In this document: positions 31,060 through 60,509 of the stretch, piece by piece | Layout of the letters: every line of letters starts with the position of its first letter | Numbering within the stretch: position 1 is the first letter of the stretch | Origin: a virus | Taxonomy: Duplodnaviria > Heunggongvirae > Uroviricota > Caudoviricetes | Strand: one strand, 5' to 3' | Virus record (IMG/VR): IMGVR_UViG_3300045597_000172 | Length of the DNA: 64,000 bases | The notes under the pieces: generated by a model | The model's input: the letters and a program-made list of their open reading frames with translations, nothing else | Database searches by the model: none | What the model was told of the DNA's origin: nothing | Made by a program: the position numbers and the translations under genes

Positions 31060-31140
31060 TTGCGGTTAATCCGCAATCTAATTGTTTTCTTCAATAGTAA
31101 ATTATTCCTTTTCCGATATGGTAAATCCATATCGTTTTAT

Positions 31141-31227: not shown

Positions 31228-31242
31228 TCCAAATATCTTAAA

Positions 31243-37797: not shown

Positions 37798-38244
37798 ATG
37801 CTATCCGGAAAACTTTATACACTAGGTTTAGTTATGTTTTCAGTCTTTTGCAGTCTTCTAATTGCAATCTATTCAATCATGGAATTCACACAACAAAGAC
37901 TCCAAGGTTCACTTCAAACCGTTACCGAAGAAGCTATCTATGACGCACGGTACGATAACGCACGAAGCACTAATAAAGTTTTTGTACTAGATAAAACAGT
38001 CTTTGAACAAGACCTGATCCATAGCAATATCAAAAGTATTTCCAACGATTCAAGTTTAAAATTAGAATACATGCACGATGATAGTACCGCGGCAAAATCA
38101 CTAAACTTAACAGATTCCCGCATCCCTATCAAAGCAGTTAGAGTAACCGTAGTTGATGGAACAAACGATCACTTAAACAAAACAATTACTTACATCATCA
38201 ACTCAAATTCAAAAACTAAAGACGATGACTTATCAAATAACTAA
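37798..38244 (+). CDS. N-terminally membrane-anchored protein (148 aa); candidate TadE/F-like pseudopilin
   Basis: N-terminal TM helix LYTLGLVMFSVFCSLLIAIYSIM followed by a soluble domain. First gene of the operon containing the secretion ATPase. Confidence 0.35.
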   Translation: MLSGKLYTLGLVMFSVFCSLLIAIYSIMEFTQQRLQGSLQTVTEEAIYDARYDNARSTNKVFVLDKTVFEQDLIHSNIKSISNDSSLKLEYMHDDSTAAKSLNLTDSRIPIKAVRVTVVDGTNDHLNKTITYIINSNSKTKDDDLSNN

Positions 38245-38260
38245 TAAAAAAGGTGAACTT

Positions 38261-40515: not shown

Positions 40516-40532
40516 GAAAGGAGCACACTTAA

Positions 40533-41387
40533 ATGTTTAACAAACAAAAATCAAAAAACACTACTGAAAAAAAGAGAACAACCAACGTTACCGCGGAAGA
40601 CTTTGATGTTCAAACCATGCGATTAAATCTTGTTCGTGAAGAATTAACATTTCCAGCCAGTTTAATTGGTGATGGCGAACTAAGACTCATGCTCAAAATG
40701 GATACTAAAACACGAGTAATCAAAGGTATCATGGGTAACAGATTCCGTGTCGCAATCGCGGCCGTACTATTTGGACTAATTTTTGGAATGATTTCCAAGA
40801 AGTATTTTATTTTAATGTTGTTCCTAGGAATTTTGATAGCTGCCGTTTCGTGGAATGATAGTATTAAAAAAACAAAAAAATACTACCAAATCTATTCGAT
40901 AAATCGTCAAGTTGCATTTACTGAATTTACTAAAATTGCCGGCGCACTTCTTCCTGAATTAGATAACGGAAAAAACCTCCTATCAATCTTTGAAGAAGTC
41001 AGCAAACATATGGACAATGAAAACGATCGTAAAGCATTGAAACAGTTAATGACACACATGCAGAGTAATAACGAAAGCAGTCAGCCATTTCTTGATTTCG
41101 CCCATCAATTTTCCACCAGTGACCGTGCAGAACTAACCATGCTATACATGCACCAAATGTACCTTGGAAACACGGATACAAGCGGAATCCAATCACTGAT
41201 CAACGATTCAAACGAAGATTACCAAGCACAAACTGAAAAAATAATTACGACCAAAATAAAAAGATTTTACAGCACCGCTACAAAGATCGCAATGAGTGTT
41301 TCAATCGTCGTTTTCGGATATTTCGGCATTTACATTGTCAACATGTTCCAGCACATCTTTAAAATCATGTCCAACGTTAAATTCTAA
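40533..41387 (+). CDS. second TadB/TadC-like membrane platform protein
   Basis: 284 aa with the same TM/cytoplasmic/TM architecture (VAIAAVLFGLIFGMI, ILMLFLGILIAAVSW, IAMSVSIVVFGYFGIYIV). RBS gaaaggagcacactta-ATG. Confidence 0.5.
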   Translation: MFNKQKSKNTTEKKRTTNVTAEDFDVQTMRLNLVREELTFPASLIGDGELRLMLKMDTKTRVIKGIMGNRFRVAIAAVLFGLIFGMISKKYFILMLFLGILIAAVSWNDSIKKTKKYYQIYSINRQVAFTEFTKIAGALLPELDNGKNLLSIFEEVSKHMDNENDRKALKQLMTHMQSNNESSQPFLDFAHQFSTSDRAELTMLYMHQMYLGNTDTSGIQSLINDSNEDYQAQTEKIITTKIKRFYSTATKIAMSVSIVVFGYFGIYIVNMFQHIFKIMSNVKF

Positions 41388-44321: not shown

Positions 44322-44385
44322 TAAAATCAGAAATTGATACTTGCAACATTTACCTCAATCTGATATTATATAACCAAGCAGTTTT

Positions 44386-44459
44386 CAGGATATAGCTAAG
44401 TTTGGTACAGCGCCGCATTTGGGATGCGGAGGTCACAGGTTCAAATCCTGTTATCCTGA
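44386..44459 (+). tRNA. tRNA-Pro (anticodon TGG)
   Basis: Acceptor caggata/tatcctg. Anticodon arm ccgca-ttTGGga-tgcgg. T-arm acagg-ttcaaat-cctgt. Confidence 0.7.
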
Positions 44460-44465
44460 TTTTCT

Positions 44466-44538
44466 GGGACATTAGCGCAATTGGGAGAGCATCTGCTTTG
44501 CAAGCAGAAGGTTGACGGTTCAAATCCATCATGTTCCA
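44466..44538 (+). tRNA. tRNA-Ala (anticodon TGC) with G3-U70
   Basis: Acceptor gggacat/atgttcc with the G3-U70 wobble. D-arm gcgc-aattggga-gagc. Anticodon arm tctgc-ttTGCaa-gcaga. T-arm gacgg-ttcaaat-ccatc. Confidence 0.75.
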
Positions 44539-44558
44539 TAGTTACAAATTTTTAAAAT

Positions 44559-44630
44559 GTGCTGTTACGCTCAATGGTAAACTACCGGTCTCCAAAACCG
44601 GTCATCTTGGTTCGAATCCAAGACAGCATG
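44559..44630 (+). tRNA. tRNA-Trp (anticodon CCA), second copy
   Basis: Acceptor gtgctgt/acagcat. Anticodon arm ccggt-ctCCAaa-accgg. T-arm cttgg-ttcgaat-ccaag. Same architecture as 29534..29605. Confidence 0.6.
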
Positions 44631-44682
44631 TCAAAAAACCACAAATAGAAACCAAGGTGGTATACACGTCAATCAATTTTTC

Positions 44683-46771: not shown

Positions 46772-48091
46772 GTGAATATCATTTCTAAACGCATTAAATA
46801 TACAAAGCAAAAGAAAACAGAAATTGGCGCAAAAAAAATCTTCATTACATTACAAAAACATCCAATCGCAGTCGTGAACGTTGGAACTGGTGGCGGAAAA
46901 ACGTTTATGTCAATTCGAGCAATCGCAGCATACAAACATAACGCTCACATTCTAGTAATAACAACCCGCAAGCAAGTAGATTCACACGATTGGCCAGACT
47001 CGATTGATTCATATAATCAAGAAGTATCAGAAGCAAACTTAACATATACTGTTTGTACGTACGGCGCATTAAATTCAAAAAAACAACAATTGGAAATAGT
47101 TAAAGAACTTCTTGATCACCAAGATCAACCACTTTACGTGATTGCTGATGAAGCGCATCGCATTAAGAATCCAAGTTCAAAAAACTTTAAACACATTCAA
47201 AAACTAGCACAATTGCATAATCATGTTGGCACAATCTGCCTAACTGCGACACCTATCAGTGAATCATTGCTTGACGCACGATCATATTTAATTCTAGCCG
47301 GATTTTACCGTAATAAAACCCAATTCAACAAAGAACATGTGACTCGTTACGATGAATATTTCCAACCAATTACAAAAGATCGATCTGGACAAATACACAA
47401 CGAGTGGTTAAAAGATTATGAACTAATAATCAACCGATTAAAAGACATTCAAGTATATGTTCCGACAGACGATCTATTACCAAAAACAATCTATAAAGAA
47501 ATCAACTTTGAATACGATAAAGATACCCAAAAAGCATATCGTCAAATCAAAAAAGACTACTTAAACGGTGTTTATGAATCCGTCGCCGAAGCAAATGCAG
47601 CCCAACGACAATTTGTTGCTGAACATAACGAACAACGATGTGCATCATTATCCAAAATTATTGACGATCCATTAAGACCGTCCGGTCCAATCTTAATTTT
47701 TTATCAGTACAACGCAGAACTGGACAGTTTACTTGACTATCTACCAAACGCACATCCTGATTACAAAATTTTTGAAATAAATGGCCGTAATAAATATGAT
47801 TCGACCACGGTTCCACCAGAGAAATCATTATTTCTTTGTCAATACGTCGCGTCCGGTGAAGCGTTAAATGCGCAATGGTCACATGTTTCAGTCTTTTACG
47901 CACCGACATATTCTTGGGAAAAATTCAAGCAATCACGCGGTAGAAACGTTCGTGCTTACCAAAAAGGAACCACCTATCACATCCGGTTTGTTGTGCTAAA
48001 AACAATTAACGAACATTACTGGTATGATTTAATAGACAACAAAAAAGCATTCACCACAAATCTAATGACCGAATATTTAATGAAAGATTGA
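46772..48091 (+). CDS. SNF2/RAD54-family-like SF2 ATPase/helicase (compact, 439 aa)
   Basis: Motif I VVNVGTGGGKTFMSI. Motif II VIADEAHRIKN (the DEAH-R-[IL]-KN SNF2 signature). Motif III ICLTATPISESLLDA. Confidence 0.6.
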   Translation: MNIISKRIKYTKQKKTEIGAKKIFITLQKHPIAVVNVGTGGGKTFMSIRAIAAYKHNAHILVITTRKQVDSHDWPDSIDSYNQEVSEANLTYTVCTYGALNSKKQQLEIVKELLDHQDQPLYVIADEAHRIKNPSSKNFKHIQKLAQLHNHVGTICLTATPISESLLDARSYLILAGFYRNKTQFNKEHVTRYDEYFQPITKDRSGQIHNEWLKDYELIINRLKDIQVYVPTDDLLPKTIYKEINFEYDKDTQKAYRQIKKDYLNGVYESVAEANAAQRQFVAEHNEQRCASLSKIIDDPLRPSGPILIFYQYNAELDSLLDYLPNAHPDYKIFEINGRNKYDSTTVPPEKSLFLCQYVASGEALNAQWSHVSVFYAPTYSWEKFKQSRGRNVRAYQKGTTYHIRFVVLKTINEHYWYDLIDNKKAFTTNLMTEYLMKD

Positions 48092-48109
48092 CTAAAGGAG
48101 CCTTGAACA

Positions 48110-48316
48110 ATGATAAAAAAACTTAGTAAAATTAAAAATATAGAGTATTACATCCTATACACAATATTAGCAATTACCGCAATTTATGATGGACTAATGA
48201 TCTACGGACTAATCAATTATTTTTGGATAACTTCCACATGGATTGGAATCCAACTCATCATCATGACAAATCTATCGATTCATTGGCTGAAAACCGCAGC
48301 AACATCAAAACATTAA
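48110..48316 (+). CDS. small two-TM membrane protein
   Basis: 68 aa. YYILYTILAITAIYDGLMIYGL and WIGIQLIIMTNLSIHWL. Followed by a GGCGCC-family terminator. Confidence 0.35.
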   Translation: MIKKLSKIKNIEYYILYTILAITAIYDGLMIYGLINYFWITSTWIGIQLIIMTNLSIHWLKTAATSKH

Positions 48317-48325
48317 CAACCGTAA

Positions 48326-48347
48326 AGCGCCAATTGGCGCTTTTTTT
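48326..48347 (+). terminator. rho-independent terminator, GGCGCC-stem family variant
   Basis: aagcgcc-aatt-ggcgctt followed by ttttttt. Confidence 0.65.
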
Positions 48348-48432
48348 ATTAAATGATAATGTGTCTACAACACATTACCAATAAAGTCGTTTAGGATGTC
48401 TAAAACTGATATTATAAAAACAAACTAAAAAA

Positions 48433-48756
48433 ATGAGGTATACAACCATGTCAAATACGACTTTACTAAACGAACTCATCAAAACATTCGAAAACAATCT
48501 CGCTAAGATAGAAAACGCTTCGACAAAAGAAATCAAACCCCAACATGAAAAACAATACATGGCCTTAGAAATTTACATCAAAAACGATGCTGTTGGATAC
48601 TTAGAAGTCATCAACCGTGAAATTCCAAAATTTCGATATGCTACATATGATGATCCATTTATTACGGAAACGAACATTTATACATACTACAAAATAATTG
48701 AAACACTGAAAAATTTATTTAACAGCTATGAACAAATACAACATGAATTAAAATAA
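48433..48756 (+). CDS. hypothetical protein
   Basis: RBS aaaaatgaggtatacaacc-ATG. 107 aa. Confidence 0.4.
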   Translation: MRYTTMSNTTLLNELIKTFENNLAKIENASTKEIKPQHEKQYMALEIYIKNDAVGYLEVINREIPKFRYATYDDPFITETNIYTYYKIIETLKNLFNSYEQIQHELK

Positions 48757-48775
48757 AACCAGAAAGGAACCTAAA

Positions 48776-49189
48776 ATGCTTAACTTACGATCAAACACAA
48801 AAAAAAGACAAAAAGCTCTCGCTTTCTGTCATGAAAATAAATTTAAAATTTGTCTATTTCAAACAACCAACATGTCACCATCAATACACTACGATTATCT
48901 AGGAAGATGCGTCACAATAAATGATCGTAACTATCTAGTAAAAGATCACGATGGCTATTACTGGTCACCAACAAAAAGTCAGTATGAAAACGACTATTAC
49001 TTCGATCAAGCAGTTTGGTTTGATTCAATCCCCGATGTCATAACCTTTGTAACCAATCTAATTTCAAAAAACGAAATTAAAAATACAAATGTCGGAATTT
49101 ACAACTACTATACTGAACATTATGTTGGAAAATTTGAGACTTTCATCAAAGACTTAGAAACCTTAATCAAGAAAGGAATTTTATCATGA
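48776..49189 (+). CDS. hypothetical protein
   Basis: RBS gaaaggaacctaaa-ATG. 137 aa. Confidence 0.4.
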   Translation: MLNLRSNTKKRQKALAFCHENKFKICLFQTTNMSPSIHYDYLGRCVTINDRNYLVKDHDGYYWSPTKSQYENDYYFDQAVWFDSIPDVITFVTNLISKNEIKNTNVGIYNYYTEHYVGKFETFIKDLETLIKKGILS

Positions 49190-49827
49190 AATATTACGCA
49201 ATTAGATCTCCATTTAAGAAAATAGTAACAAGCTGGTTTGAATGCGAAAAATTAGTCAAAGGCGTTAGCGGTACGGAATTCAAATCGTTTCACACAATGG
49301 AAGAAGCTCAGGACTTTATTCACGGCGCTACAAGTAGTAAAACTTCAAAAGAAGATCAACAGAACGTCTTAGACCTACCCTACATCGGCACACGCGTCTT
49401 TGTAGACGGTTCATTTAACGCCCCGGCACATTTATACGGAGGAAGCGCAATCTTCATAGACGACAAACCAGAGCCATCTGTTATACAGACAATTCAATTC
49501 AACGGGAGCAATCCAGATTTCCTAAGATCAAGAAACATTTCCGGTGAAATCGGCGCAACTATTCGTGCTATTAACTATGCAATCAAAAAAAATATCAAAG
49601 AACTAACCATTATTCATGATTACGAAGGCATCGCCAAATGGGCTAATGGATTATGGAGAACCGATAAAACACCAATTGCAAGAGCATACAATGAATCTAT
49701 TGTAAATGCCACTCAAAACCACAACCTTAAATTAAAATTCATCTGGGTTAAGGGTCATACTGGCGTTAAATACAATGAACAATGCGATAAACTCGCAAAG
49801 GAAGCATGTGGTATTGGACTTAAATAA
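49186..49827 (+). CDS. ribonuclease HI with N-terminal hybrid-binding domain (HBD)
   Basis: N-terminal YYAIRSPFKKIVTSWFECEKLVKGVSGTEFKSFHTMEEAQDF (HBD/Cauli_VI-like). Catalytic FVDGS...E...D...VKGHTGVKYNEQCDKLAKEA. Overlaps the upstream stop (ATGA). Confidence 0.7.
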   Translation: MKYYAIRSPFKKIVTSWFECEKLVKGVSGTEFKSFHTMEEAQDFIHGATSSKTSKEDQQNVLDLPYIGTRVFVDGSFNAPAHLYGGSAIFIDDKPEPSVIQTIQFNGSNPDFLRSRNISGEIGATIRAINYAIKKNIKELTIIHDYEGIAKWANGLWRTDKTPIARAYNESIVNATQNHNLKLKFIWVKGHTGVKYNEQCDKLAKEACGIGLK

Positions 49828-49836
49828 GCAATAGAA

Positions 49837-50067
49837 ATGGAAAGATTAACGATGAATACACTAGACATTGAAATTAAAATAACCGATAAAAACATTGCCG
49901 CAACAAAATACAAAATTAGCAAAATTGCAAATCGCGTTTCATATGACTGGTTATTAAATGACGTAATGTTTGCATCAGTAACTCCTGCTCAATTTTCAAG
50001 AATAAAAAAATTAAATGTCGATACCAAAATTGATAACAAAACAATCCAAACAACTACAAAATATTAG
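49837..50067 (+). CDS. hypothetical protein
   Basis: RBS aatggaaagattaacg-ATG (track start 49837). 76 aa. Confidence 0.35.
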   Translation: MERLTMNTLDIEIKITDKNIAATKYKISKIANRVSYDWLLNDVMFASVTPAQFSRIKKLNVDTKIDNKTIQTTTKY

Positions 50068-50084
50068 AAAGGAACACTAAGAAT

Positions 50085-50531
50085 ATGCGTGAGCTGATCA
50101 AAATTCAAAAAAGTTATAAACCAGACAAGCAAACACTTTTCCAATTATATCGCCGATCAAGCATTACAAAAAAAGAACTTTCGTATATCGAATTCGGAAA
50201 AGCGATTGATAAAACTACCTTAATTGTTGCAAAGAACGAAAAAAATAAAATTGTTGGATTCAGCGCATATTACCACAATTGGGGATTTATTTACTTACTA
50301 TATGTTGATCCAAACTATCAGAATCACGGAATCGGAAATAGTCTAATTAAAAAAATCATTCAACTAAGAAGACATAATCGTTACGGACATACTATCAGAT
50401 TACTTTGTGCTATCGAAAATAAATCCGCTCAAAAATTTTATCAACACTTTGGATTTAAAAACAAAGAAACTGTCAAAGGAAACATGTCAGATTGTGTCTT
50501 ATTTATGTACAACCCAAACGAGGAGCTATAA
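50085..50531 (+). CDS. GNAT-family N-acetyltransferase
   Basis: VGFSAYYHNWGFIYLLYVDPNYQNHGIGNSLIKKI (motif A Q/RxxGxG/A). 148 aa. Confidence 0.6.
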   Translation: MRELIKIQKSYKPDKQTLFQLYRRSSITKKELSYIEFGKAIDKTTLIVAKNEKNKIVGFSAYYHNWGFIYLLYVDPNYQNHGIGNSLIKKIIQLRRHNRYGHTIRLLCAIENKSAQKFYQHFGFKNKETVKGNMSDCVLFMYNPNEEL

Positions 50532-50533
50532 CG

Positions 50534-50926
50534 ATGAAATCAATTAAGAAAGACACCCAAACTGCACTTTATGAATTGCTTACCCAAACCATCAACAATG
50601 CAAAACAAAAAGAAGTTGATACAAAAAAAGATATTTTAGTCGGAATTCAAAAATATCACAAAAGCTATATAATTATCGTAATTGAAAACAAACGGAAAAA
50701 TAAACGCGTAATGTCTAGTTACGTAATCAATGCGAATCAAGTAACATTAATGCCAACTAACATTCAAGATTTAGACATATTTTACACAGACGACGAAGTC
50801 AAACATGGTAAAAATCTAAAAAATGGAAAACCTATTACCAAGATGAACATCGATTTTGAACTTCACCCCAACTGGATAAAAAAACAAATCAACAAATTAA
50901 GATCAAAATTCACAAAACTAACATAA
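50534..50926 (+). CDS. hypothetical protein
   Basis: ATG at 50534 with RBS aacgaggagctataacg, preferred over track start 50492. Confidence 0.4.
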   Translation: MKSIKKDTQTALYELLTQTINNAKQKEVDTKKDILVGIQKYHKSYIIIVIENKRKNKRVMSSYVINANQVTLMPTNIQDLDIFYTDDEVKHGKNLKNGKPITKMNIDFELHPNWIKKQINKLRSKFTKLT

Positions 50927-50951
50927 ACCCACTACGAAAGAAGGACTTGCT

Positions 50952-51854
50952 ATGCCAGATTGGGCATATACCAAAATAACTGCACCCACCAATGAAAAAT
51001 TCAAGAAAATACTTACTGCACTCAGTCCAACAAATCAGCCTGAATACAAAGATCCAAAACTTAACAACCTAATTCCAATGCCGCCTGAACTACATCTAAA
51101 TTACAGTCACAACAGTAACGATTTAATCGAAATCTATTGTTTATCACTCCTACTTGCCGCAATTAAAGCACGCCTTACTAACAATCAATCAGAGTTTAAT
51201 AAAATCAAAAACAGATTGGATAAATTTACAGCATATACAAGATCAAAAAACACGCACGGTCTATTGCCGCATCGACTTGGCGATCTAAGCAATGAAATCA
51301 ACCAATCCGATCTCAAAACTAGAACTCGTGAAATTGAACAGTTATTAAACGACAATTTTTCAAATGCAATCAAAAACATTTATCACGATCCTAAATCTAA
51401 TCGAACACCAGCTGAAGACTTAATTTTAAATACCTTATCATCACTGGAATCAAGCCAAAAAAGAATTAAGATTGAGGAATTCATTAAAGCTTACAAGTTA
51501 GATTCATCGCTGACCTATTATTTCGAACCAAGTATTAATTACCATGACAAAAAACTCCTAAAACTTTTATATCAAATCGGAGAACGCTACTTCAACAATG
51601 TCTACGAACATGAAGCACTTTCGTGGTATGATTGGCGTCTTCTAAATTGGGGAACTAAGTGGGATCTTGTCAATGTGAAAATAGACAACAAAAACTTCAA
51701 CATTGAATTTCAAACTGCATGGAGTATTCCAGAAAATGGACTAATCGCATTAGCAAAACGTTGCGGAGAAATAACAATTTACATTTCCTACGAAACAGAC
51801 GATCCTGAAGATGAACCAGAAAAACATACCGTAACCGAAACCGAACTCATATAG
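50952..51854 (+). CDS. hypothetical protein
   Basis: RBS gaaagaaggacttgct-ATG. 300 aa. Confidence 0.4.
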   Translation: MPDWAYTKITAPTNEKFKKILTALSPTNQPEYKDPKLNNLIPMPPELHLNYSHNSNDLIEIYCLSLLLAAIKARLTNNQSEFNKIKNRLDKFTAYTRSKNTHGLLPHRLGDLSNEINQSDLKTRTREIEQLLNDNFSNAIKNIYHDPKSNRTPAEDLILNTLSSLESSQKRIKIEEFIKAYKLDSSLTYYFEPSINYHDKKLLKLLYQIGERYFNNVYEHEALSWYDWRLLNWGTKWDLVNVKIDNKNFNIEFQTAWSIPENGLIALAKRCGEITIYISYETDDPEDEPEKHTVTETELI

Positions 51855-51935
51855 AAAGGATGATCGAGATGTTCAACATCAGAAAAAAATTACAGCACTG
51901 GTAAGTACCATAAAAAATACTAAGGAAGTGCTACC

Positions 51936-52553
51936 ATGTCACAAAACATCATTAATCAATTTGCAATCATTAACGATAATTGCATTACATGCTACGATTA
52001 TCAAAATTTAGTTACTAAACTTGCCCTAGACATCAACCTGAAAGAAAAAATGTATGATGAATACTTGAACGATGTTTCGCAACTGCATTACCAAATTTTT
52101 CGAGTAAGTAATCCAATCGTAAAACAAAATAAATATGTAACCTATCAAGAAAGCACAAAGACAATTGATTTTGAAAAACTCAATCATGACATTTCTACAA
52201 AATTAAAAAACAAAGATTTCAGCAGTAATAATTGGACCGTATCTGAATTAAAAATACCTAGTCAGATTAAACACACACAATATCAAATTGAAAGACGTAA
52301 ATCACATAGTAATCAACACTTAAAAATTGGACGTGTTAATCATGCAGGACTTTATTCTTACTGTAAATACTGGATTCGATGCAACGACGTCATGAACGAA
52401 CCCATTCTCGAAAAAATTGATAAAAAAGTAATCAAACACCAACGACGGTATACAAAACAAAAACTAGAATGGTTTGATGAATGGGAAACATATACGGGTA
52501 AGAAATCAACCGGTTGGAAAAATACCAAACGTAAACATCAATACAAAAACTAA
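51936..52553 (+). CDS. hypothetical protein
   Basis: RBS actaaggaagtgctacc-ATG. 205 aa, Cys/His-containing. Confidence 0.4.
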   Translation: MSQNIINQFAIINDNCITCYDYQNLVTKLALDINLKEKMYDEYLNDVSQLHYQIFRVSNPIVKQNKYVTYQESTKTIDFEKLNHDISTKLKNKDFSSNNWTVSELKIPSQIKHTQYQIERRKSHSNQHLKIGRVNHAGLYSYCKYWIRCNDVMNEPILEKIDKKVIKHQRRYTKQKLEWFDEWETYTGKKSTGWKNTKRKHQYKN

Positions 52554-52570
52554 AGGAAAGGACATTTATT

Positions 52571-52843
52571 ATGTCAAACTGGAAAACTATCCTCGAAACT
52601 ACAACAATCAAAACAACGTCAAAAGAATTTCTCAACGGAAATCAATTAACAAAAACTCCATGGAAACGTGCATTAGAAATCATGCGAAATTATGACAACA
52701 TTGCATGGATTGACACATTTAAAACAAAAAACGAATGCTTTAACTACATTCAAAACGATGATTACTTATCAAAAGTATCATTAAAAAACATGCAACTATA
52801 TCAGATTACTGATCTTGAAGAAGTTTTACTAATTGTCTACTAA
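52571..52843 (+). CDS. hypothetical protein
   Basis: RBS aaaggaaaggacatttatt-ATG. 90 aa. Confidence 0.4.
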   Translation: MSNWKTILETTTIKTTSKEFLNGNQLTKTPWKRALEIMRNYDNIAWIDTFKTKNECFNYIQNDDYLSKVSLKNMQLYQITDLEEVLLIVY

Positions 52844-52860
52844 AGGAGATCTATTAACAA

Positions 52861-53316
52861 ATGGCACAAACACCAGAAAAGAAAATCGAAAACAAAATTC
52901 GAGATGATTTTGAAACTGCCGGTGGATATATTAAAAAGTTTTTTGCAAGTCCGCATACCAATAAAGGAATTCCGGATTTAATTGGTGTTCTAAACGGCGT
53001 TTATGTTGCATTAGAAGTAAAAAGACCCGTTGGAGGTAAACCAACACCTGTCCAACTAAAGAATTTACAAAAAATCGCTAATGCTGGTGGTATCGCATGT
53101 GTAACCAATGATCCCGGAATTGTTTCAGCATTAATAAAGAAAACAACAAATTACAATCCCGAAAATCAAAAAATCACACCCAGCAACAAAAATATAATTA
53201 TAAACTACAAAAAAATACCACAAACCGGCATTACTGAAACTGTTGCAGCTCATTTGTGGAATCAAACAACCGGCCCCCACAGTTTACAAATTTTAAAGAA
53301 GGAGCCATCGCAATGA
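52861..53316 (+). CDS. VRR-NUC domain (PD-(D/E)xK) nuclease
   Basis: GIPDLIGVLNGVYVALEVKRPVGGKPTPVQLKNLQKI matches the VRR-NUC GxPDhh...h.hEhK....LsxxQ pattern. Confidence 0.55.
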   Translation: MAQTPEKKIENKIRDDFETAGGYIKKFFASPHTNKGIPDLIGVLNGVYVALEVKRPVGGKPTPVQLKNLQKIANAGGIACVTNDPGIVSALIKKTTNYNPENQKITPSNKNIIINYKKIPQTGITETVAAHLWNQTTGPHSLQILKKEPSQ

Positions 53317-54458
53317 CTAACGAAAAAATAAAGCCTTACGATTATCGTTCAGCTATCAGAAACGTGATTGACCAATTACCAGATTCAAAACAAGGATTGA
53401 AGATCGGAATCGTCAGCATTCAAGGAATTCTTGATATGGCAAAAATTGCAATTGCAGAACCTGCACCAACAGAAATTAAAAAAATAGAAATTCCACATGA
53501 ATCAAATGTTAACACCAAAACCGAGCCAAAAAAGAAAAACGAAAAACCTGAATTTCTTCAAGTCGAACGATTAATCTCAGGATTCGATTTATACGATCCT
53601 AAAAACCCAGAAAATCAATTAAACTATCATTACGATGAAATCACTGCTCGACGGCTAAGCGTTGAAAATCACGACATCGTCAAAGTTGATTACCAAAACA
53701 CTATGCAACGAAATATTCCGTACATTGTTGAAATTGTCAAAAGTGTCAATGACCCTACGTATTTTACATTACTAAAATATTGCAAAATCGAAAAAGACAA
53801 TCATGGACAACTAATCGTTAAAGAAACCTATAATCATCAATCATTAAAAAGTATGAATCGAGTATTTGACTATTACCTAATTCCTAAGACTATGATTGCA
53901 AAACTCTTTATCAAAGAGGATCAATTGATTGATATTGGATGGTACAATGACGAGCCAGAACGAATAATCGTGAGTCTAGTACATTATGAAGATGAACTAA
54001 CTTTACCCAAAAAAGAAAAACCAAAACAAATATCAAATCAAAATAGTCAAGTAAGCAAAAAAGAAACCGAACCTGAAACCGTATCAACTTTAAAATTTAA
54101 TCTTCAAGGAAAACATGTCGGAATTGTGGTTGGTGACGAACTTAGAAGTGCACCAATCAAAAAATTAATCCAAGAACATCACGGAAGATTAACAATGATT
54201 GATGCCTTTAAACACTCAGACAGCGCAGGTTTTTACGACAAACAACTACGAAAGAAATTTGACATTATTGTAATGGTTCAAAATCAAAATAAACACAACA
54301 CGTCAAAAGCACTTAATAAAGCAACAAAAAAATATCACTTAAACATGGCAATTTCAGACGGATTAGGAATTCAACAAATTGAACGTGCAATCTATCGTGC
54401 ACTTAATAAATATCCTGCATACGAATCAAGTGCAAACATTGACTATCCGATGTTATAA
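53313..54458 (+). CDS. hypothetical protein
   Basis: ATG at 53313 with aagaaggagccatcgca RBS, preferred over track start 53256. Confidence 0.4.
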   Translation: MTNEKIKPYDYRSAIRNVIDQLPDSKQGLKIGIVSIQGILDMAKIAIAEPAPTEIKKIEIPHESNVNTKTEPKKKNEKPEFLQVERLISGFDLYDPKNPENQLNYHYDEITARRLSVENHDIVKVDYQNTMQRNIPYIVEIVKSVNDPTYFTLLKYCKIEKDNHGQLIVKETYNHQSLKSMNRVFDYYLIPKTMIAKLFIKEDQLIDIGWYNDEPERIIVSLVHYEDELTLPKKEKPKQISNQNSQVSKKETEPETVSTLKFNLQGKHVGIVVGDELRSAPIKKLIQEHHGRLTMIDAFKHSDSAGFYDKQLRKKFDIIVMVQNQNKHNTSKALNKATKKYHLNMAISDGLGIQQIERAIYRALNKYPAYESSANIDYPML

Positions 54459-54487
54459 AAAGTGATTTTAAGAAAGGAGATCATCAC

Positions 54488-54943
54488 ATGGGACTCTATC
54501 TATATGCCGCAATCAACAAAGAATCATTAGGTGGAATAGACATTAGTTATGGCAGATTCTTTTGGTTACGAAATGAAATTGCAAAATTAACAGGTTTTGA
54601 ATACCAATACAAAGAAATGACAACTTTACCAAATACGTACTTTGATAAAACAAAACCTGAAAACCGATTAAACAATTCAAAATTCATTCCCAAATACGAT
54701 TCACCATTACTCTTAAAACATCCAGATTCAACATTATTAACAAAAATTGAACTCAAACATCTAATTCAATTTTTAACAATGTCTGATGTTGAAGGCAAAT
54801 TAACAAGAACACAAATAAAATCATTGTGGAATGTTTTAAAAAATAAAGAATCAAAAAACATCAACGTTAAAATGGCGTTCAATGATTTCAAAAATGTATT
54901 ACACATTGCATACGAAAAAAAAGGATATATCAGATGGGAATAA
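54488..54943 (+). CDS. hypothetical protein
   Basis: RBS aagaaaggagatcatcac-ATG. 151 aa. Confidence 0.4.
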   Translation: MGLYLYAAINKESLGGIDISYGRFFWLRNEIAKLTGFEYQYKEMTTLPNTYFDKTKPENRLNNSKFIPKYDSPLLLKHPDSTLLTKIELKHLIQFLTMSDVEGKLTRTQIKSLWNVLKNKESKNINVKMAFNDFKNVLHIAYEKKGYIRWE

Positions 54944-54969
54944 ACCAAATCAACTAGGAGGATATCTCA

Positions 54970-55647
54970 ATGAGTTTTTTATCATTACCAAAAAACAACT
55001 GGCGAAAATCATTACCGTTATATCTAAATCAAGACGATATGATTGAACTAAACAAAAAAGTCAAAGCTGCCTACGAATCTGAAACGGTTCTACCAGAAAA
55101 ATCAAGTATCTTCAAAGCCTTAGAATTAACCGACTACGAAAACGTAAAAGTTGTAATTTTAGGACAAGATCCCTACCCTAACCCAAATAATGCAATGGGA
55201 TTAGCGTTTTCCGTAAAACCAAACGTGAATGTACCAATGAGTTTACAAAACATTTATACCGAACGTTATCATGACCTTGGAATCCCAACATCAAATTCAG
55301 GCGATTTAACAAGTTGGGCAAAACAGGGTGTTCTATTATTAAACACCTCCCTAACCGTAGCTATGAACAATTCAGATAGCCACCGTGACATTGGATGGAC
55401 AGAATTTACAGATGGTGTTATTAAGGCACTTGTAAATCGAAACAAGCCGGTTGTCTTTATTCTTTGGGGAAGTCATGCGCAAAGTAAGACTGATTTAATT
55501 CCAAAAAAGAACAACATTTTAGTACTTAAAAGCAGCCATCCAAGCCCATTTAGTGCAAGAATCTCATTCTTTGGATCATATCCATTTAGTAAGACAAACC
55601 ATTTTCTAAGTGAACACGGATCAAAACCAATCAATTGGGAAAACTAA
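54970..55647 (+). CDS. ung: uracil-DNA glycosylase, family 1
   Basis: KVVILGQDPYPNPNNAMGLAFSV (GQDPY water-activating loop), LLLNTSLTV, HPSPFSA (HPSPLS His motif). RBS actaggaggatatctca-ATG. Confidence 0.75.
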   Translation: MSFLSLPKNNWRKSLPLYLNQDDMIELNKKVKAAYESETVLPEKSSIFKALELTDYENVKVVILGQDPYPNPNNAMGLAFSVKPNVNVPMSLQNIYTERYHDLGIPTSNSGDLTSWAKQGVLLLNTSLTVAMNNSDSHRDIGWTEFTDGVIKALVNRNKPVVFILWGSHAQSKTDLIPKKNNILVLKSSHPSPFSARISFFGSYPFSKTNHFLSEHGSKPINWEN

Positions 55648-55666
55648 AAAACGAAAGGTCAACGTC

Positions 55667-56416
55667 ATGGATAACAAATCAAAACTAATCGTTATTAAAA
55701 ATCGTGCATTAAACAATGACATTAAATTTTACAGCGAAACAAAATCAGTCAAAGATTTTCAAGATGATACCACCATGTTTCTTCAGACTGTCAGCAAACA
55801 AGTAGCAGAACCAGTCTTAAATCAACTAGAAACGCAATTGAAAATTTTAATTGACAGAACAAAACCTTTATATCAACCAACAAAAATTGTATACGAAAAT
55901 AGAATTAACGTTGATCCAGCTGCAACCCGACAAGAAAAAACAAGATTGACTAGAATTGCAACCAAAAATGGAAACATCTTACAAAACATAATCTATGAAG
56001 AACTTCATAAGAACAAAATAGAACCGCAAAACGAATATGAAAATCTTGTTATCGATGCACTTGAAAAATATTATGGCGAAATTTCAGACACTGATGTATT
56101 AGCCAATTACGTTCCATTAAATAACATTCCAAGAATTCTTAACATTGTCGACCAATTCAACGCTGGTTATAAAGACACCGAAATAAGAAATATGACTTTA
56201 TCAGCACTCAAACAAAACAACCTTGAAACCAAGAACTTAAAATTAACATGGTCACGTTGGTCAGATGACAATATCTGTATGTTTGAAAAACGTCATCTTT
56301 TACAAATGAAGATCGGAATAGCATTTTCAATGTCATACAAGTTATTGACGTACGTCGAATTTATGACATGTAACGGATGGAAAACTACCAAAAACTTTAC
56401 CAACGTTGAAATTTAA
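55667..56416 (+). CDS. hypothetical protein
   Basis: ATG at 55667 with aacgaaaggtcaacgtc RBS, preferred over track start 55610. Confidence 0.4.
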   Translation: MDNKSKLIVIKNRALNNDIKFYSETKSVKDFQDDTTMFLQTVSKQVAEPVLNQLETQLKILIDRTKPLYQPTKIVYENRINVDPAATRQEKTRLTRIATKNGNILQNIIYEELHKNKIEPQNEYENLVIDALEKYYGEISDTDVLANYVPLNNIPRILNIVDQFNAGYKDTEIRNMTLSALKQNNLETKNLKLTWSRWSDDNICMFEKRHLLQMKIGIAFSMSYKLLTYVEFMTCNGWKTTKNFTNVEI

Positions 56417-56428
56417 AAACGAAAGAAG

Positions 56429-57646
56429 ATGAATATTGTGTATACAGTAGAAGGACGATACGCCACTGCAAAAGTTTTCAATAACTTAACCGATGCAAAT
56501 GCCATCGGACAACTAATTGGTATTTGTAATGAATTAATTACACAAAACACAAAAGTCGCACTAATGCCAGATGGACACTTCGGCGCAGGTGTTCCAATCG
56601 GAACTACTATCAAATTGCCAAAAGAAAAATCTAAATGGCGCATCTCACCTACGATTATTTCCGGTGATATCGGATGTGGTATGCTCGCCATTAAAATTAA
56701 GCAACACGATCTTGATTTCAAGAAATTAGACGACTTTATAACAAAAAACATTCCAAACGGTGCCGAAAAGAATACAAAAAAGCAAAATGTTAAATTTTCA
56801 ATTGAGACCATTGCAAAAATGACATTCAATTCATCTAAATTTGACAAAGAAGATGTCCTTTACAGTTTAGGCAGTCTTGGCGGTGGAAACCACTTCATTG
56901 AAATCGACAAAGACAAGAAAAATAACTTTTGGCTCGTTATTCATTGCGGATCAAGACATGTTGGTATTGCAGTCTTAAAAGCACACATGGCAATTGCTAA
57001 ACAACACTATTCAGATCAATATTTAGAAACTCTAAGTGAATTTTATCGTGCTGCTGGCCGTGAGAAAGAATTAGAAAAAACACTAAAGGCATTTAAACAA
57101 ACTGACATTTTAACCAATATTGACTATGCATTTTTACAAGGAACATATTTAGAAGATTATTTACATGATGTCAAAATTGCACAAGCCTTTGCTTCAAAAA
57201 ACCGTGAGATTATTGCTAATCAAATCTTAAAAGCCATGAACTGGACAATCGACGAAAAAGTTGAAACGATTCATAACTATTTTGACTACAATGATAATAC
57301 ACTTCGCAAAGGTGCAACTTCTGCACATCACGGACAAAAATTAATCATCCCATTAAATATGCGAGATGGTGCACTAATCTGTTATGGTCGCGGTAACGAA
57401 GATTGGAATTATTCCGCACCACATGGCGCGGGACGTAAATTAACAAGATCAGAAGCCAAAGAAAAAATAAACTTAGCCAATTTCAAAGATGAAATGTCTG
57501 GAATCTATACGACATCCGTTGAAACATCAACTATTGATGAAGCTCCCGAAGCTTATAAACCTACGGAACAAATTACCGAAACCGTTGGTGATACCGTACG
57601 TATACTTGACCGAGTAAAGCCTGTTTATAACTTCAAAGCTCATTAG
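56429..57646 (+). CDS. rtcB: RtcB-family RNA 3'-phosphate/2',3'-cyclic phosphate ligase
   Basis: MPDGHFGAGVPIGTT, GSLGGGNHFIEID, IHNYFDY...LRKGATSA, NYSAPHGAGRKL. All are canonical RtcB metal/GTP-binding motifs. Confidence 0.8.
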   Translation: MNIVYTVEGRYATAKVFNNLTDANAIGQLIGICNELITQNTKVALMPDGHFGAGVPIGTTIKLPKEKSKWRISPTIISGDIGCGMLAIKIKQHDLDFKKLDDFITKNIPNGAEKNTKKQNVKFSIETIAKMTFNSSKFDKEDVLYSLGSLGGGNHFIEIDKDKKNNFWLVIHCGSRHVGIAVLKAHMAIAKQHYSDQYLETLSEFYRAAGREKELEKTLKAFKQTDILTNIDYAFLQGTYLEDYLHDVKIAQAFASKNREIIANQILKAMNWTIDEKVETIHNYFDYNDNTLRKGATSAHHGQKLIIPLNMRDGALICYGRGNEDWNYSAPHGAGRKLTRSEAKEKINLANFKDEMSGIYTTSVETSTIDEAPEAYKPTEQITETVGDTVRILDRVKPVYNFKAH

Positions 57647-57662
57647 AAAGGAGATCTTTACA

Positions 57663-57959
57663 ATGAATTGGATTAAACCGCCATCAAAAAAATACCCCGG
57701 ATATTCAGAGTGCCCATATTGTTCATTTGATTATTACCACCCTGTCAACGGTTTCTACCTTGCCGAAAAACCTATTGGCAACAATATAGGATTAGCCCAA
57801 TATGAGCAATCAACAAAACTTAAAAATGGAAAGGTACACACTGATATCACAATTGTACATCTTGATTCTAAAACTCAAAAAATCACTGCAAGTGGCAGAA
57901 CTACCAATATAAACAATTGCCCCATGTGTGGAAACCTACTAAATTCAACTATTTTTTAA
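57663..57959 (+). CDS. zinc-ribbon protein, paralog of 43642..43887
   Basis: CPYCSFDYYHPVNGFYLAEKPIGNNIGLA...CPMCGN. Confidence 0.4.
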   Translation: MNWIKPPSKKYPGYSECPYCSFDYYHPVNGFYLAEKPIGNNIGLAQYEQSTKLKNGKVHTDITIVHLDSKTQKITASGRTTNINNCPMCGNLLNSTIF

Positions 57960-57982
57960 AACAATAAAAGGAGATTTTTAAA

Positions 57983-58246
57983 ATGTTAGATCCTAAAATT
58001 AAGAACTTAAACAAAAAAACACGAGATGTTTTGGAAATGATGTATGCTGTAAAACTTGTTTACAAAACAAAAAATCCAATTGATGCATTCAAGAAAATAA
58101 AAGAATCATTATCTGATAGTACATTTACTGATCCTGATTCAGCAAGAAATTTCAACATTGTTATGAATCATCCAACCGAAAAACAGTTAGCAATCGAAAT
58201 ATTCCAAAAATATTCACCTGAACAATTTGATAAAGTAACTGCCTAA
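57983..58246 (+). CDS. hypothetical protein
   Basis: RBS aaaaggagatttttaaa-ATG. 87 aa. Confidence 0.4.
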   Translation: MLDPKIKNLNKKTRDVLEMMYAVKLVYKTKNPIDAFKKIKESLSDSTFTDPDSARNFNIVMNHPTEKQLAIEIFQKYSPEQFDKVTA

Positions 58247-58264
58247 AAATAAGGAGTCTTAACT

Positions 58265-58696
58265 ATGTCTACTATCAATACTTCCCTAATTAAGCCGGAC
58301 GCTGACAATCCTAGATACGGACTTTATCTAAATCCGAGAGAAACATTCGGCTGGAACGAACAACTAATTCAACTTATAGAACAAACACCAGAACAACCAC
58401 TGGATTCTCTTTTAGAAGAATATCAATGTCTTAACACGAAAGAAATGCAAGAAAATCCAACCGTGAAAAAGCTAAGTGAATTACTAAACCTAGAAATTCC
58501 TATTTACGGTATTGGAAAGAATTCAAAGCAAGCTTTAAATAATGCTACGAAAAAACTAAACAATCAGTTCAAAAAACTAATGTTTGGGCAATATTCAAAT
58601 GCAGTAGCATTCAAGTGGACATATCTTGATCCACAATATTTAAAAATTATCAAAACAACCATTTCTGAAAATCAAATTATCATTCTAACAAAATAA
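58265..58696 (+). CDS. hypothetical protein
   Basis: RBS aataaggagtcttaact-ATG. 143 aa. Confidence 0.4.
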   Translation: MSTINTSLIKPDADNPRYGLYLNPRETFGWNEQLIQLIEQTPEQPLDSLLEEYQCLNTKEMQENPTVKKLSELLNLEIPIYGIGKNSKQALNNATKKLNNQFKKLMFGQYSNAVAFKWTYLDPQYLKIIKTTISENQIIILTK

Positions 58697-58724
58697 TCTT
58701 AAAATAAGAAAGCTGGAAAAAATT

Positions 58725-59207
58725 ATGTCAACAAATGCATCTATTTCAATTCAAGAAAACAAAAAAATCACAACAATCTATAATCATTGGGATGGTTACA
58801 TCGAAGCTCTTGGAGAAACTCTAATTCAAAACTATACGGATCCTGAAAAAGTAAAAAAACTCATCGAACTCGGTGACGCATCAAGTATTGGAAAAACCGT
58901 AGAGCCATCTAAATTAACTCAAAAATTTGGATTTGACGGCAGCCTAAGTGATGAATTCAAAGCCTTATCTAGCAAACAAAAACATGAACTACGAAAAGAT
59001 GATCAATCAGATAACTATTCATTATTCTACGGTCGTGATCGTGGCGAAAAAGATATCGAAGCTAGAGAATACAACTCAATTGCAGACATGTATCGGCACG
59101 AAGGACAAGAATACAACTATCTGTTTAAAGATGGAAAATGGTACGTTTCATACAGCGAAAAACCAAATTTCAAATCATTAAAAGATGAAATAGAAACTGA
59201 GGAATAA
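58725..59207 (+). CDS. hypothetical protein
   Basis: RBS aagaaagctggaaaaaatt-ATG. 160 aa. Confidence 0.4.
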   Translation: MSTNASISIQENKKITTIYNHWDGYIEALGETLIQNYTDPEKVKKLIELGDASSIGKTVEPSKLTQKFGFDGSLSDEFKALSSKQKHELRKDDQSDNYSLFYGRDRGEKDIEAREYNSIADMYRHEGQEYNYLFKDGKWYVSYSEKPNFKSLKDEIETEE

Positions 59208-59234
59208 ACAATTCAAAAGAAAGGAAGCTAATTC

Positions 59235-60509
59235 ATGACGATCAATCAACCATTAGCAGACAAATTACGGCCAAAAAAATTAAATGATGTCGTTGGACAA
59301 CATGAATTAATCGATGAAGGAAAACCCTTGCGAACTCTAATTGAACAACGCAAAGCTCTTTCTTTCATTTTCTATGGGCCGCCCGGTGTTGGCAAAACAA
59401 CAATTGCCAATGTGATTGCTAACGAATGGAAATTACCTCTTGAAAAATTTAACGCATCAATCGACAACAAAGCAAAATTACAAGCAGCCGTAAAACATCA
59501 TCCAGACGAAACTTTTGCTTTAATTCTTGACGAAATTCACCGCTTAACAACGCCATTACAAGATTATTTACTACCATTCCTAGAATCAGGACAAATCTTA
59601 TTACTAGGCGCAACAACCGAGAACCCTATTATCACCATCAGTCCCGCTATTAGGTCGCGGTGTGCATTATTCGAACTCAAGCCGGTAAATATCCATGACC
59701 TCGCGCAATCGCTCAAACGCGCATATATGAGCTTTAACGAGCAGCAAACACCCGAAGAAAACATATTTGAAACAATCGCTAAATTTGCAAACGGGGATGT
59801 TCGGACAGGCATAAATCTACTTGAAACTCTGCATACGATGTATGGCCAAAAAATTACAATCGACAATATTCAAGAATATGCAAAGCAACAACATTTTGTA
59901 TTCGATAAAAAAGGAAACTTCCATTACGACACGATTTCAGCACTCCAAAAATCCATTAGAGGATCAGATACCGATGCAGCATTGTTTTACGCTGCCCTAC
60001 TAATGCAAGCCGGAGATCTCGAAACCCTCTTACGCCGTATGAAAGTCATTGGATATGAAGATATTGGTCTAGCCGATCCAGAAGCTGTCCAACAAGCAGT
60101 TACTGCGTTAAAAATCAGCGAGGAAGTCGGATTGCCTGAAGCTCGAATTCCAATCGCTAACGCCATCATCATTCTATGTAACGCCAAGCATTCGAACTCA
60201 GCACATGATGCAATCAATCTTGCATTAGAAGATGCCAAAGACAATCAAGCACATCCAATTCCATATCACTTACGCGATACTCACTATTCCGGATCACAAA
60301 AATTAGGTCACGTTGGATACAAATATCCGCATGATTATAAAAATGACTGGATTGCTCAACAATATCTTCCAGACGATCTGCTCAACAAACGTTATTATTT
60401 TCCAAAGAAAAATAAAAACGAAAACCGAATCAAAGAATTTTATCTTGGATTAAAAGAACTACAATTAGAAATACTAAAAGATAAAGGAGCGTTACCACAT
60501 GACAAATGA
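59235..60509 (+). CDS. rarA: RarA/MgsA-like AAA+ ATPase (replication-associated recombination protein A family)
   Basis: DVVGQHELIDEGKPLRTLIEQRKALSFIFYGPPGVGKTTIANVIA, LILDEIHRL, LLLGATTENP, GDVRTGINLLE. Confidence 0.7.
   Translation: MTINQPLADKLRPKKLNDVVGQHELIDEGKPLRTLIEQRKALSFIFYGPPGVGKTTIANVIANEWKLPLEKFNASIDNKAKLQAAVKHHPDETFALILDEIHRLTTPLQDYLLPFLESGQILLLGATTENPIITISPAIRSRCALFELKPVNIHDLAQSLKRAYMSFNEQQTPEENIFETIAKFANGDVRTGINLLETLHTMYGQKITIDNIQEYAKQQHFVFDKKGNFHYDTISALQKSIRGSDTDAALFYAALLMQAGDLETLLRRMKVIGYEDIGLADPEAVQQAVTALKISEEVGLPEARIPIANAIIILCNAKHSNSAHDAINLALEDAKDNQAHPIPYHLRDTHYSGSQKLGHVGYKYPHDYKNDWIAQQYLPDDLLNKRYYFPKKNKNENRIKEFYLGLKELQLEILKDKGALPHDK

Follow-up and report, generated by a model that had tools for sequence, protein, structure and literature searches.

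Introduction

RtcB-family RNA ligases have been described from bacterial chromosomes, from phages and, together with Archease, from archaea and metazoans; the subject of the present study is an rtcB gene lying in a 64,000-nucleotide (nt) stretch of the IMG/VR virus record IMGVR_UViG_3300045597_000172 (hereafter the window, meaning that whole stretch), considered alongside the transfer RNA (tRNA) and transfer-messenger RNA (tmRNA) genes carried by the same element. The gene in question is:

56429..57646, + strand: rtcB, predicted RNA 3'-phosphate/2',3'-cyclic phosphate to 5'-OH ligase (ATG start, 405 amino acids, aa)

Among phages, its best homologues (41-44% identity) come from Schiekvirus phages of Enterococcus and Herelleviridae of Bacillus. 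Like the window protein, the RtcB proteins of Herelleviridae and other Firmicutes phages (PHROG 1075; e.g., phiSHEF16 and EFDG1 of Enterococcus, Bcp1 of Bacillus), annotated as "tRNA-splicing ligase / RtcB", are full-length (~395-412 aa; 41-44% identity), and in Enterococcus phage phiSHEF16, too, rtcB stands alone amid small open reading frames (ORFs) in the non-structural region; within 8 kb of it no tRNA is annotated. Compared with the Herelleviridae-type phages, to whose RtcB the window protein is ~43% identical, the element is larger (at least 237 kb vs. about 150 kb) and encodes LPXTG, MucBP and T2SSE genes. With the RtcR-regulated rtcBA genes of Escherichia coli and Salmonella (rsr-yrlBA-rtcBA), where RtcB uses guanosine triphosphate (GTP) and Mn2+ to seal 3'-P or 2',3'-cyclic-P ends to 5'-OH ends and damaged tRNA and ribosomal RNA (rRNA) are the proposed substrates (PMC7790460), the window gene product shares the fold and the inferred active-site residues; however, the gene lies on a mobile element rather than a chromosome, without RtcA, RtcR, Ro60 or Y RNA nearby.

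Three further systems invite comparison. The PrfH-coupled RtcB2 proteins are likewise short RtcB enzymes of bacterial type, and the tmRNA of the element would be a conceptual analogue of their rescue partner (PMC9304027). Phage T4 deploys Pnkp and Rnl1 against PrrC by the same proposed logic, i.e., reversal of anticodon-loop cuts that leave 2',3'-cyclic-P/5'-OH ends, but with unrelated enzymes that heal and seal with ATP, as opposed to the direct GTP-dependent sealing of RtcB; no Pnkp, Rnl or Hen1 was found among the scanned ORFs of the window, whereas one relative, contig L009, has both systems side by side. Finally, the archaeal and metazoan RtcB/RTCB proteins, which work with Archease, are the best structural matches (P. 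horikoshii 4dwq, human 8odp) and have identical metal-binding and guanosine monophosphate (GMP)-histidine residues, although the window protein is ~75-100 residues shorter and 16-20% identical to them, and Archease, a splicing endonuclease and a canonical intron-bearing tRNA are all absent from the scanned window.

A role for phage RtcB and tRNA genes in tRNA repair is already published. For mycobacteriophages, in which RtcB was confined to subcluster genomes also encoding a tRNA, Pope et al. 2011 proposed that the enzyme guards against cleavage of tRNA by the host (PMC3203893); Iyer et al. 2021 saw RtcB and ATP-grasp ligases as supplementing jumbo-phage tRNAs by repairing RNase damage (PMC7824862); Santamaria-Gomez et al. 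2021 linked tRNA arrays, RtcB and the use of tRNAs as nuclease sponges (PMC8421152); and the same reasoning on RtcB was applied to phage Privateer (PMC7881722). Should this standard hypothesis be true here, the element would be one more large mobile element with a one-enzyme RNA repair kit against host ribonuclease immunity, useful for cataloguing counter-defence genes while leaving the overall picture unchanged. Its modest value lies in a divergent RtcB lineage, at most 50% identical to all known sequences but one, on a very large, otherwise unknown, Gram-positive-associated element, and in the comparison of tRNA linkage across loci given below.

The window encodes a predicted, catalytically complete RtcB ligase

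The product of the ORF at 56429..57646 is an RtcB-family ligase, predicted from its residues to be catalytically complete. It matches the Pfam RtcB profile PF01139 at 204.7 bits (E=3.9e-60; gathering score, 27), with residues 41-403 aligned to profile positions 13-425 of 426, and PHROG 1075 "tRNA splicing ligase" at E=2.5e-119 (residues 4-404 vs. profile positions 56-441 of 459). For residue mapping, the protein was aligned with 31 homologues and the resulting profile was searched against PDB sequences. The alignment to P. horikoshii RtcB (PDB 1uc2/4dwq) recovered the published residue numbering and gave the equivalences D48=D65, H50=H67, D80=D95, C83=C98, N154/H155=N202/H203, E158=E206, H172=H234, H282=H329, H332=H404 (the guanylylated histidine) and R336=R408, with every one of these active-site residues invariant throughout the homologue alignment. 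The two-metal ligands D80, C83, H155, H172 and H282 (P. horikoshii D95, C98, H203, H234 and H329) are thus all in place, as is the GMP-accepting H332 within SAPHGAGR (the HGAGR motif, which also holds R336).

The AlphaFold2 model built from the homologue alignment is confident (predicted local distance difference test [pLDDT] score 90.5; predicted template-modelling [pTM] score 0.88), and its Foldseek search against the PDB returned 16 matches at E<=0.001, every one an RtcB/RTCB chain and the remainder noise, the best being 4dwq_A (E=4.9e-24; template-modelling [TM] score, 0.73). An earlier note on this DNA had read the RtcB catalytic motifs as intact, which is upheld by the conserved metal ligands and H332, the full-length PF01139 match and the confident model. 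Against the closest relative, P0002 (70% identical), the ratio of nonsynonymous to synonymous change (pN/pS) is 0.24, with synonymous sites saturated; rtcB is thus under purifying selection. A 144-aa antisense ORF within the gene (56413..56847, - strand) was rejected as a gene and judged a shadow ORF, an artefact of conserved coding sequence, since equivalent antisense ORFs lie inside rtcB in 49 of 83 related loci.

RNA repair as the favoured role

The enzymology of RtcB is that of Tanaka & Shuman 2011 and Chakravarty et al. 2012, as cited in PMC7824862 and PMC7881722. By that established chemistry, the window protein would take GTP and Mn2+ to guanylylate itself on His332 and would then move the GMP onto an RNA 3'-phosphate, after opening of the 2',3'-cyclic phosphate; the 5'-OH end would attack the activated 3' end, resealing the break. 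We infer that during the life of the element in the cell, RtcB would in this way reseal RNAs of translation cut by metal-independent host ribonucleases, for which HEPN-type anticodon nucleases and colicin-like or MazF-like toxins are the candidates. The most probable targets would be the tRNAs of host and element alike. Those of the element would mainly top up codon supply and the tmRNA would rescue stalled ribosomes, such that repair, codon supply and ribosome rescue would run side by side across the element as a whole rather than as one co-regulated module. Overall, we moderately favour the view that this RtcB reseals presumed tRNA (possibly also rRNA) substrates broken by metal-independent ribonucleases.

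The class of ribonuclease matters here. Nucleases of the VapC type (PIN, Mg-dependent) produce 5'-P/3'-OH ends that RtcB is unable to join, and their earlier listing among the toxins to be counteracted is for that reason dropped. To our knowledge, RtcB substrates arise only from metal-independent RNases, namely PrrC, RloC, colicin E5/D/E3, MazF and HEPN nucleases.

In support of tRNA repair, 18 tRNA genes and a tmRNA gene lie on the same element as rtcB, and there is evidence for action of bacterial RtcB on damaged tRNA and rRNA (PMC7790460, PMC9304027). The neighbourhoods of relatives are also informative. In L009, an 804-aa protein combining AAA_33 kinase, Metallophos and RNA_lig_T4_1 domains (Pnkp/Rnl1-like) is encoded 3 kb upstream of rtcB; in L007, a PTH2 peptidyl-tRNA hydrolase gene lies upstream of rtcB and six tRNA genes lie 0.6-5 kb downstream. 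Among the Bacillota genome loci (L010-L089), the recurrent neighbours of rtcB encode regulators with WYL (14 loci) or WCX (14 loci) domains, DUF2828/DUF7788 proteins (8 loci) and proteins with Macro domains (6 loci). These RNA-repair and regulator neighbourhoods fit with an RNA-damage response, and RNA repair is the best-supported role for the RtcB clade.

The RNA genes concerned are as follows:

22540..31231, + strand: main tRNA array, with small ORFs interspersed (ARAGORN, Rfam, covariance models)
29767..30095, + strand: tmRNA, tag AKENTLVAA (ARAGORN, at 29767..30092; Rfam RF00023, 105.9 bits)
44385..44632, + strand: second tRNA cluster, Pro-TGG, Ala-TGC, Trp-CCA (ARAGORN, Rfam)
22540..22611, + strand: tRNA-like sequence, called "tRNA-???" with a 2-nt anticodon by ARAGORN
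24109..24174 and 28305..28370, + strand: tRNA-like 66-nt sequences (covariance models only, 25-37 bits)

All 18 tRNAs and the tmRNA were called by ARAGORN on the + strand and confirmed by Rfam. The main array holds 14 ARAGORN tRNAs with an anticodon (Thr, Ser x3, Glu, Tyr, Leu, Asp, Asn x3, Lys, Trp and Thr), together with the single "tRNA-???" call, the tmRNA and degenerate tRNA-like sequences; across the window, the repeated tRNAs are Asn(GTT), present three times, and Trp(CCA), present twice. The co-occurrence of three Asn tRNAs, two Trp tRNAs, a tmRNA and tRNA-like sequences, on which the proposal of a defensive role had been built, is therefore real by both ARAGORN and Rfam. The three tRNA-like sequences listed could be decayed genes or decoys. 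The tRNAs of the main array are putative substrates of RtcB, to whose gene they are unlinked. No SmpB gene was found in the window.

Codon supply and the linkage of tRNA genes to rtcB

A different account of the same RNA genes denies any functional tie: the tRNAs would serve codon supply, the tmRNA would serve ribosome rescue or sensing, and rtcB would be an independently acquired, often-exchanged accessory, with the "layered defence" being the co-occurrence expected on any very large element. Codon usage speaks for this. The coding sequence of the window is rich in Asn (8.7% of codons), Lys (8.7%) and also Thr (8.1%); 23 codons, together 51.5% of the total in the window, are read by the carried tRNAs, and usage is higher for tRNA-covered than for uncovered codons (Mann-Whitney p=0.023). 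With Asn at 8.7% of codons, the three Asn tRNAs match what codon supply predicts. Also in its favour, no rtcB neighbours are shared with relatives, rtcB is common in many unrelated phages and bacteria, and proximity of rtcB to any tRNA is not significant once loci are de-duplicated (see below). On the other hand, codon demand does not explain the tRNAs for rare codons, i.e., the two for Trp (0.8%), that for Ser-CGA (0.41%) and that for Thr-CGT (0.7%), which are encoded at:

29533..29606 and 44558..44632, + strand: tRNA-Trp(CCA)
23910..23997, + strand: tRNA-Ser(CGA)
23826..23901, + strand: tRNA-Thr(CGT)

Arrays of at least two tRNAs near rtcB are, moreover, ~3.5-fold commoner in viral clusters (p=0.051), and RNA-repair genes adjoin rtcB in relatives. 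We regard the absence of any connection as unlikely. Codon demand does largely explain the tRNA set, with only the rare-codon tRNAs unaccounted for.

Linkage was assessed across loci. In the raw counts, 42 of 80 viral loci vs. 12 of 80 bacterial-genome loci have a tRNA gene no more than 6 kb from rtcB (p=8e-7). The viral loci are highly redundant and this enrichment is therefore overstated: after clustering at 80% RtcB identity, the counts become 10/31 viral vs. 12/65 genomic (p=0.19), and a strong enrichment of tRNA genes beside viral rtcB was rejected. Arrays of at least two tRNAs within 6 kb of rtcB remain in 7/31 viral vs. 5/65 genomic clusters (p=0.051), and the linkage is clearest in a few huge-phage contigs (357-419 kb), where 11-15 tRNAs flank rtcB. 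Physical linkage of rtcB and tRNA genes in this clade is thus suggestive at best, tempering the common assumption that the two are associated.

Several observations weigh against tRNA repair as the role of the window gene: (i) the nearest tRNA genes (the 44385..44632 cluster) are 11.8 kb upstream of rtcB, the main array is 25-34 kb away and the tmRNA 26 kb away; (ii) codon demand accounts for most of the tRNAs, and tRNA proximity to rtcB loses significance on clustering, as detailed above; (iii) the immediate neighbours of rtcB are DNA-metabolism genes and ORFans; (iv) rtcB itself is the only gene common to the window and the relatives L006, L007 and L009, and 160 further genome and viral loci share almost nothing as conserved neighbours; (v) no experimental test of a phage RtcB, nor experimental evidence for its substrate, was found in the literature; (vi) no capsid, portal, terminase or tail match was found in the about 114 kb viewed of the at least 237-kb element (the window, ~9 kb to its left and ~30 kb to its right); and (vii) the genes for an LPXTG protein, for a MucBP adhesin and for a T2SSE-family ATPase are atypical for a phage. 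As for the "layered defence" of the earlier note, rtcB, the tRNAs and the tmRNA do share one element, but they are not a genetic unit, given the 11.8 kb separating rtcB from the nearest tRNA, its position inside a DNA-metabolism block and the absence of shared neighbours.

The gene block around rtcB and its candidate partners

rtcB belongs to a tightly packed set of genes read in one direction:

46772..60509, + strand: co-directional, tightly packed block including rtcB

The block comprises genes for an SNF2 helicase, RNase H, a GNAT protein, an endonuclease-like ORF, a DUF2325 protein, a 151-aa ORF, uracil-DNA glycosylase (UDG) and a 249-aa ORF, together with rtcB itself, four small ORFs and the gene for an MgsA-type AAA+ protein; a guanylate kinase gene is also counted in this DNA- and nucleotide-metabolism block. 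Intergenic gaps of 12-16 nt flank rtcB. No terminator-like site was found on the + strand between 52.5 and 61 kb, and promoter-like sites are no more frequent than in shuffled sequence.

From this setting, a role in DNA-end repair could be imagined, in which RtcB caps or seals DNA 3'-phosphate ends within the DNA-metabolism block. E. coli RtcB reportedly acts on DNA 3'-phosphate ends in vitro (work of the Shuman laboratory). The block does hold UDG, RNase H, the SNF2 helicase, the endonuclease-like ORF and MgsA, and in one bacterial locus, L048, MgsA is likewise encoded 1 kb downstream of rtcB. Yet these neighbours are not conserved, the neighbourhoods of the clade concern RNA repair and regulation, and a biological DNA role of RtcB is not established; we consider this explanation highly improbable.

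RNA repair as the favoured role finds no dedicated partner gene in the vicinity. Domains of Archease, Pnkp, Hen1, RtcA, RtcR, PrfH, RNA ligases and splicing endonucleases are missing from the Pfam-scanned window ORFs, including any match to the Archease and splicing endonuclease families PF01951 and PF01974, and from the precomputed Pfam tables of the flanks (about 10-30 kb). The absence of a Pnk/Hen1 or Archease partner had been remarked upon before for the window, and holds for the flanks covered here as well. Neither the RtcA cyclase nor RtcR (CARF plus sigma-54 AAA+) was found near rtcB, the sole sigma-54-type match being to the MgsA homologue and reflecting generic AAA+ similarity. Just past the window end, 9-12 kb downstream, lie genes for a NUDIX hydrolase and, at 10-12 kb, for a Metallophos protein and a DHH/DHHA1 phosphoesterase.

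Three candidate partners were examined and set aside: (i) a PHROG "phosphatase" match, considered for end healing, lies 5.4 kb left of the window start and >60 kb from rtcB; (ii) the VWA protein of the window has no similarity to DUF2828/TROVE-like RNA-repair partners; and (iii) for the 151-aa ORF, a set of 1.84 billion representative proteins contains just 5 relatives, including one in a phage-like replication module without rtcB. This last ORF (54488..54943, + strand) has a homologue of 44% identity at 1657..2118 in L172, the contig of the closest relative, where it adjoins rtcB; it is the only gene besides rtcB common to the window and L172, and has no relative in the PDB.

The partner search also bears on a ribosome-centred alternative, in which RtcB would mend mRNA or rRNA (e.g., where colicin E3- or MazF-type toxins have severed the 16S 3' end) and the tmRNA would clear stalled ribosomes, the two together being a functional analogue of the bacterial pair of PrfH (rescue) and RtcB2 (repair). 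For this there is the PrfH-RtcB2 precedent itself (PMC9304027), the tmRNA on the same element, the lack of linkage between rtcB and tRNA genes in the window, and the fact that the PrfH-coupled PRK09588 and TIGR03073 are the best-scoring NCBIfam models. These scores are, however, far below the cut-offs (PRK09588/NF007153, 142.5 vs. 407; TIGR03073, 115.1 vs. 271.8), which places the window RtcB outside the PrfH-coupled RtcB2 families. Nor is there an adjacent prfH or any other release-factor-like gene nearby, release factor (RF)-type (prfH-like) domains being absent from rtcB neighbours within 10 kb on either side; the tmRNA is 26 kb away; and relatives of rtcB adjoin tRNA clusters, PTH2 and the Pnkp/Rnl1-like protein. 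A ribosome-repair pairing of this kind is, in our estimation, improbable.

A divergent lineage of a widespread clade

Of 50,697 phage records, 687 contain an RtcB homologue by tblastn, among them 221 from phages of Mycobacterium, 63 of Bacillus, 58 of Listeria and 23 of Enterococcus. Homologues are present too in 228 plasmid records, in IMG/VR (at least 577 contigs) and in bacterial genomes representing at least 594 species, mostly of Bacillota. Aside from the closest relative, P0002 (70% identity), no protein in a collection of 5.8 billion exceeds 50% identity to the window RtcB, which is therefore a divergent lineage of a very common clade.

Interrupted tRNA-like genes

Two tRNA-like genes carry insertions in the anticodon arm:

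25973..26058, + strand: tRNA-like gene with enlarged anticodon loop (42.2 bits as tRNA)
L172, 85..199, + strand: 115-nt tRNA-like gene (45.9 bits; 50-nt insertion in the anticodon arm)

In the window copy, the acceptor, D and T arms are normal and 22 nt replace the 7-nt anticodon loop, a region in which the direct repeat UCGGAUAU occurs twice; removal of 13 or 15 nt in silico yields tRNA-Pro(CGG) at ARAGORN default thresholds. The L172 copy is on the same strand as the rtcB of the closest relative (RtcB 70% identical) and 72 nt upstream of it, and becomes tRNA-Arg(CCT) at the same thresholds when 20 nt are removed. These genes are the only feature found here that could raise a new question, namely whether RtcB rejoins the halves of interrupted tRNA-like transcripts of the element after an endonuclease has cut out the anticodon-loop insertions. 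This would amount to protein-dependent tRNA splicing, with non-group-I insertions, or to a deliberately "pre-broken" decoy/repair cycle, on a bacterial mobile element. Consistent with this are the position of the insertions (15-22 nt in the window copy, 20-50 nt in that of L172), the restoration of standard tRNAs by in-silico excision and the closeness of the L172 copy to rtcB. Nonetheless, the fold of the 25973..26058 insertion is that of an extended hairpin with bulges of 1 nt rather than a 3-4-3 bulge-helix-bulge, no EndA-type endonuclease is encoded in the scanned ORFs, and the window copy resembles a slippage duplication and lies 30 kb from rtcB. Interrupted tRNA-like genes are also absent beside rtcB in 163 other loci and from the window at 45-64 kb, no precedent was found in the literature, and the available contigs are 100% identical, thus offering no variation by which to gauge conservation. 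Splicing by RtcB strikes us as very unlikely here, and decayed tRNA genes are the most economical reading.

Intron-bearing tRNAs were likewise rejected as a general companion of rtcB, L172 being the only instance found when ARAGORN was run in intron mode and a covariance model for tRNA was applied. In huge-phage contigs, the overlong tRNAs for Gln, Cys, Asn, Met and Arg owe their length to long variable arms and not to introns. Such tRNAs of 86-95 nt, belonging to isotypes that are normally short-armed, occur in arrays adjoining rtcB in large and huge phage contigs:

L107, 3453..3547: long-variable-arm tRNA
L109, 2698..2787: long-variable-arm tRNA
L112, 2553..2642 and 10221..10306: long-variable-arm tRNAs
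L120, 3840..3926: long-variable-arm tRNA
L101, 9061..9153: long-variable-arm tRNA
L007, 16233..16321: long-variable-arm tRNA

The carrier element

The carrier of rtcB is uncultivated, low in GC and at least 237 kb long, with a host of Gram-positive type, and rtcB is a stand-alone accessory gene on it. An identical RtcB protein is encoded on contigs from three samples, the longest of 236,971 bp, and the contigs of three independent datasets (JGI 3300044212, SRR16379729 and SRR35178714) are 100% identical to the window over all overlapping bases. The literature yielded nothing on these sample accessions. No DNA similarity to deposited phages or plasmids was detected, and a search of IMG/VR for the same element came up empty. 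Huge phages carry tRNAs, tmRNAs and SmpB, and comparable gene sets occur in some large putative plasmids (PMC7162821).

Among its genes, those leaning towards phages encode a member of the T4 gp30.3 family, the anaerobic ribonucleotide reductase NrdD, orphan methylases (Dam and N6/N4), a WDGH protein, two proteins resembling guanylate kinase and a CobS/CobT-like AAA+/VWA pair; many PHROG matches, and a few genes in common with the phage-like contigs L007 and L009, lean the same way. No relaxase, VirB4 or VirD4 was found in the portion viewed. Besides the three surface and secretion genes mentioned above, a ParM/actin-like partition protein is atypical for a phage. Taken together, the element is probably a huge phage or a phage-plasmid; the phage carrier assumed from the outset is likely on the strength of the phage-leaning genes, but no virion gene accompanies them in the portion viewed. 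The surface-adhesin and secretion/pilus-like genes suggest a Gram-positive (Lactobacillales-like) host. The corresponding features of the window are:

824..2038, + strand: actin-like (ParM/MreB-like) partition protein
2513..3880 and 4424..6130, + strand: CobS/CobT-like AAA+ and VWA pair
6145..8007, + strand: ClpB-like double-AAA+ protein (PHROG 4871, E=8.5e-125)
19086..22463, + strand: 1125-aa LPXTG cell-wall-anchored protein
33063..37334, + strand: 1423-aa protein with four MucBP domains
38225..41387, + strand: T2SSE-family ATPase and, after it, two ORFs (274 and 284 aa)

The right flank, known from contigs L170/L174, continues the inventory:

about window +4 to +30 kb: NUDIX protein, Metallophos protein (272 aa), DHH/DHHA1 protein (308 aa), T4 gp30.3-family protein, N6/N4 and Dam methylases, WDGH protein, second non-specific endonuclease, second guanylate kinase-like protein, NrdD

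Within the window, assemblies of the element break at about 29.2 kb, at the repeated copies of tRNA-Asn.

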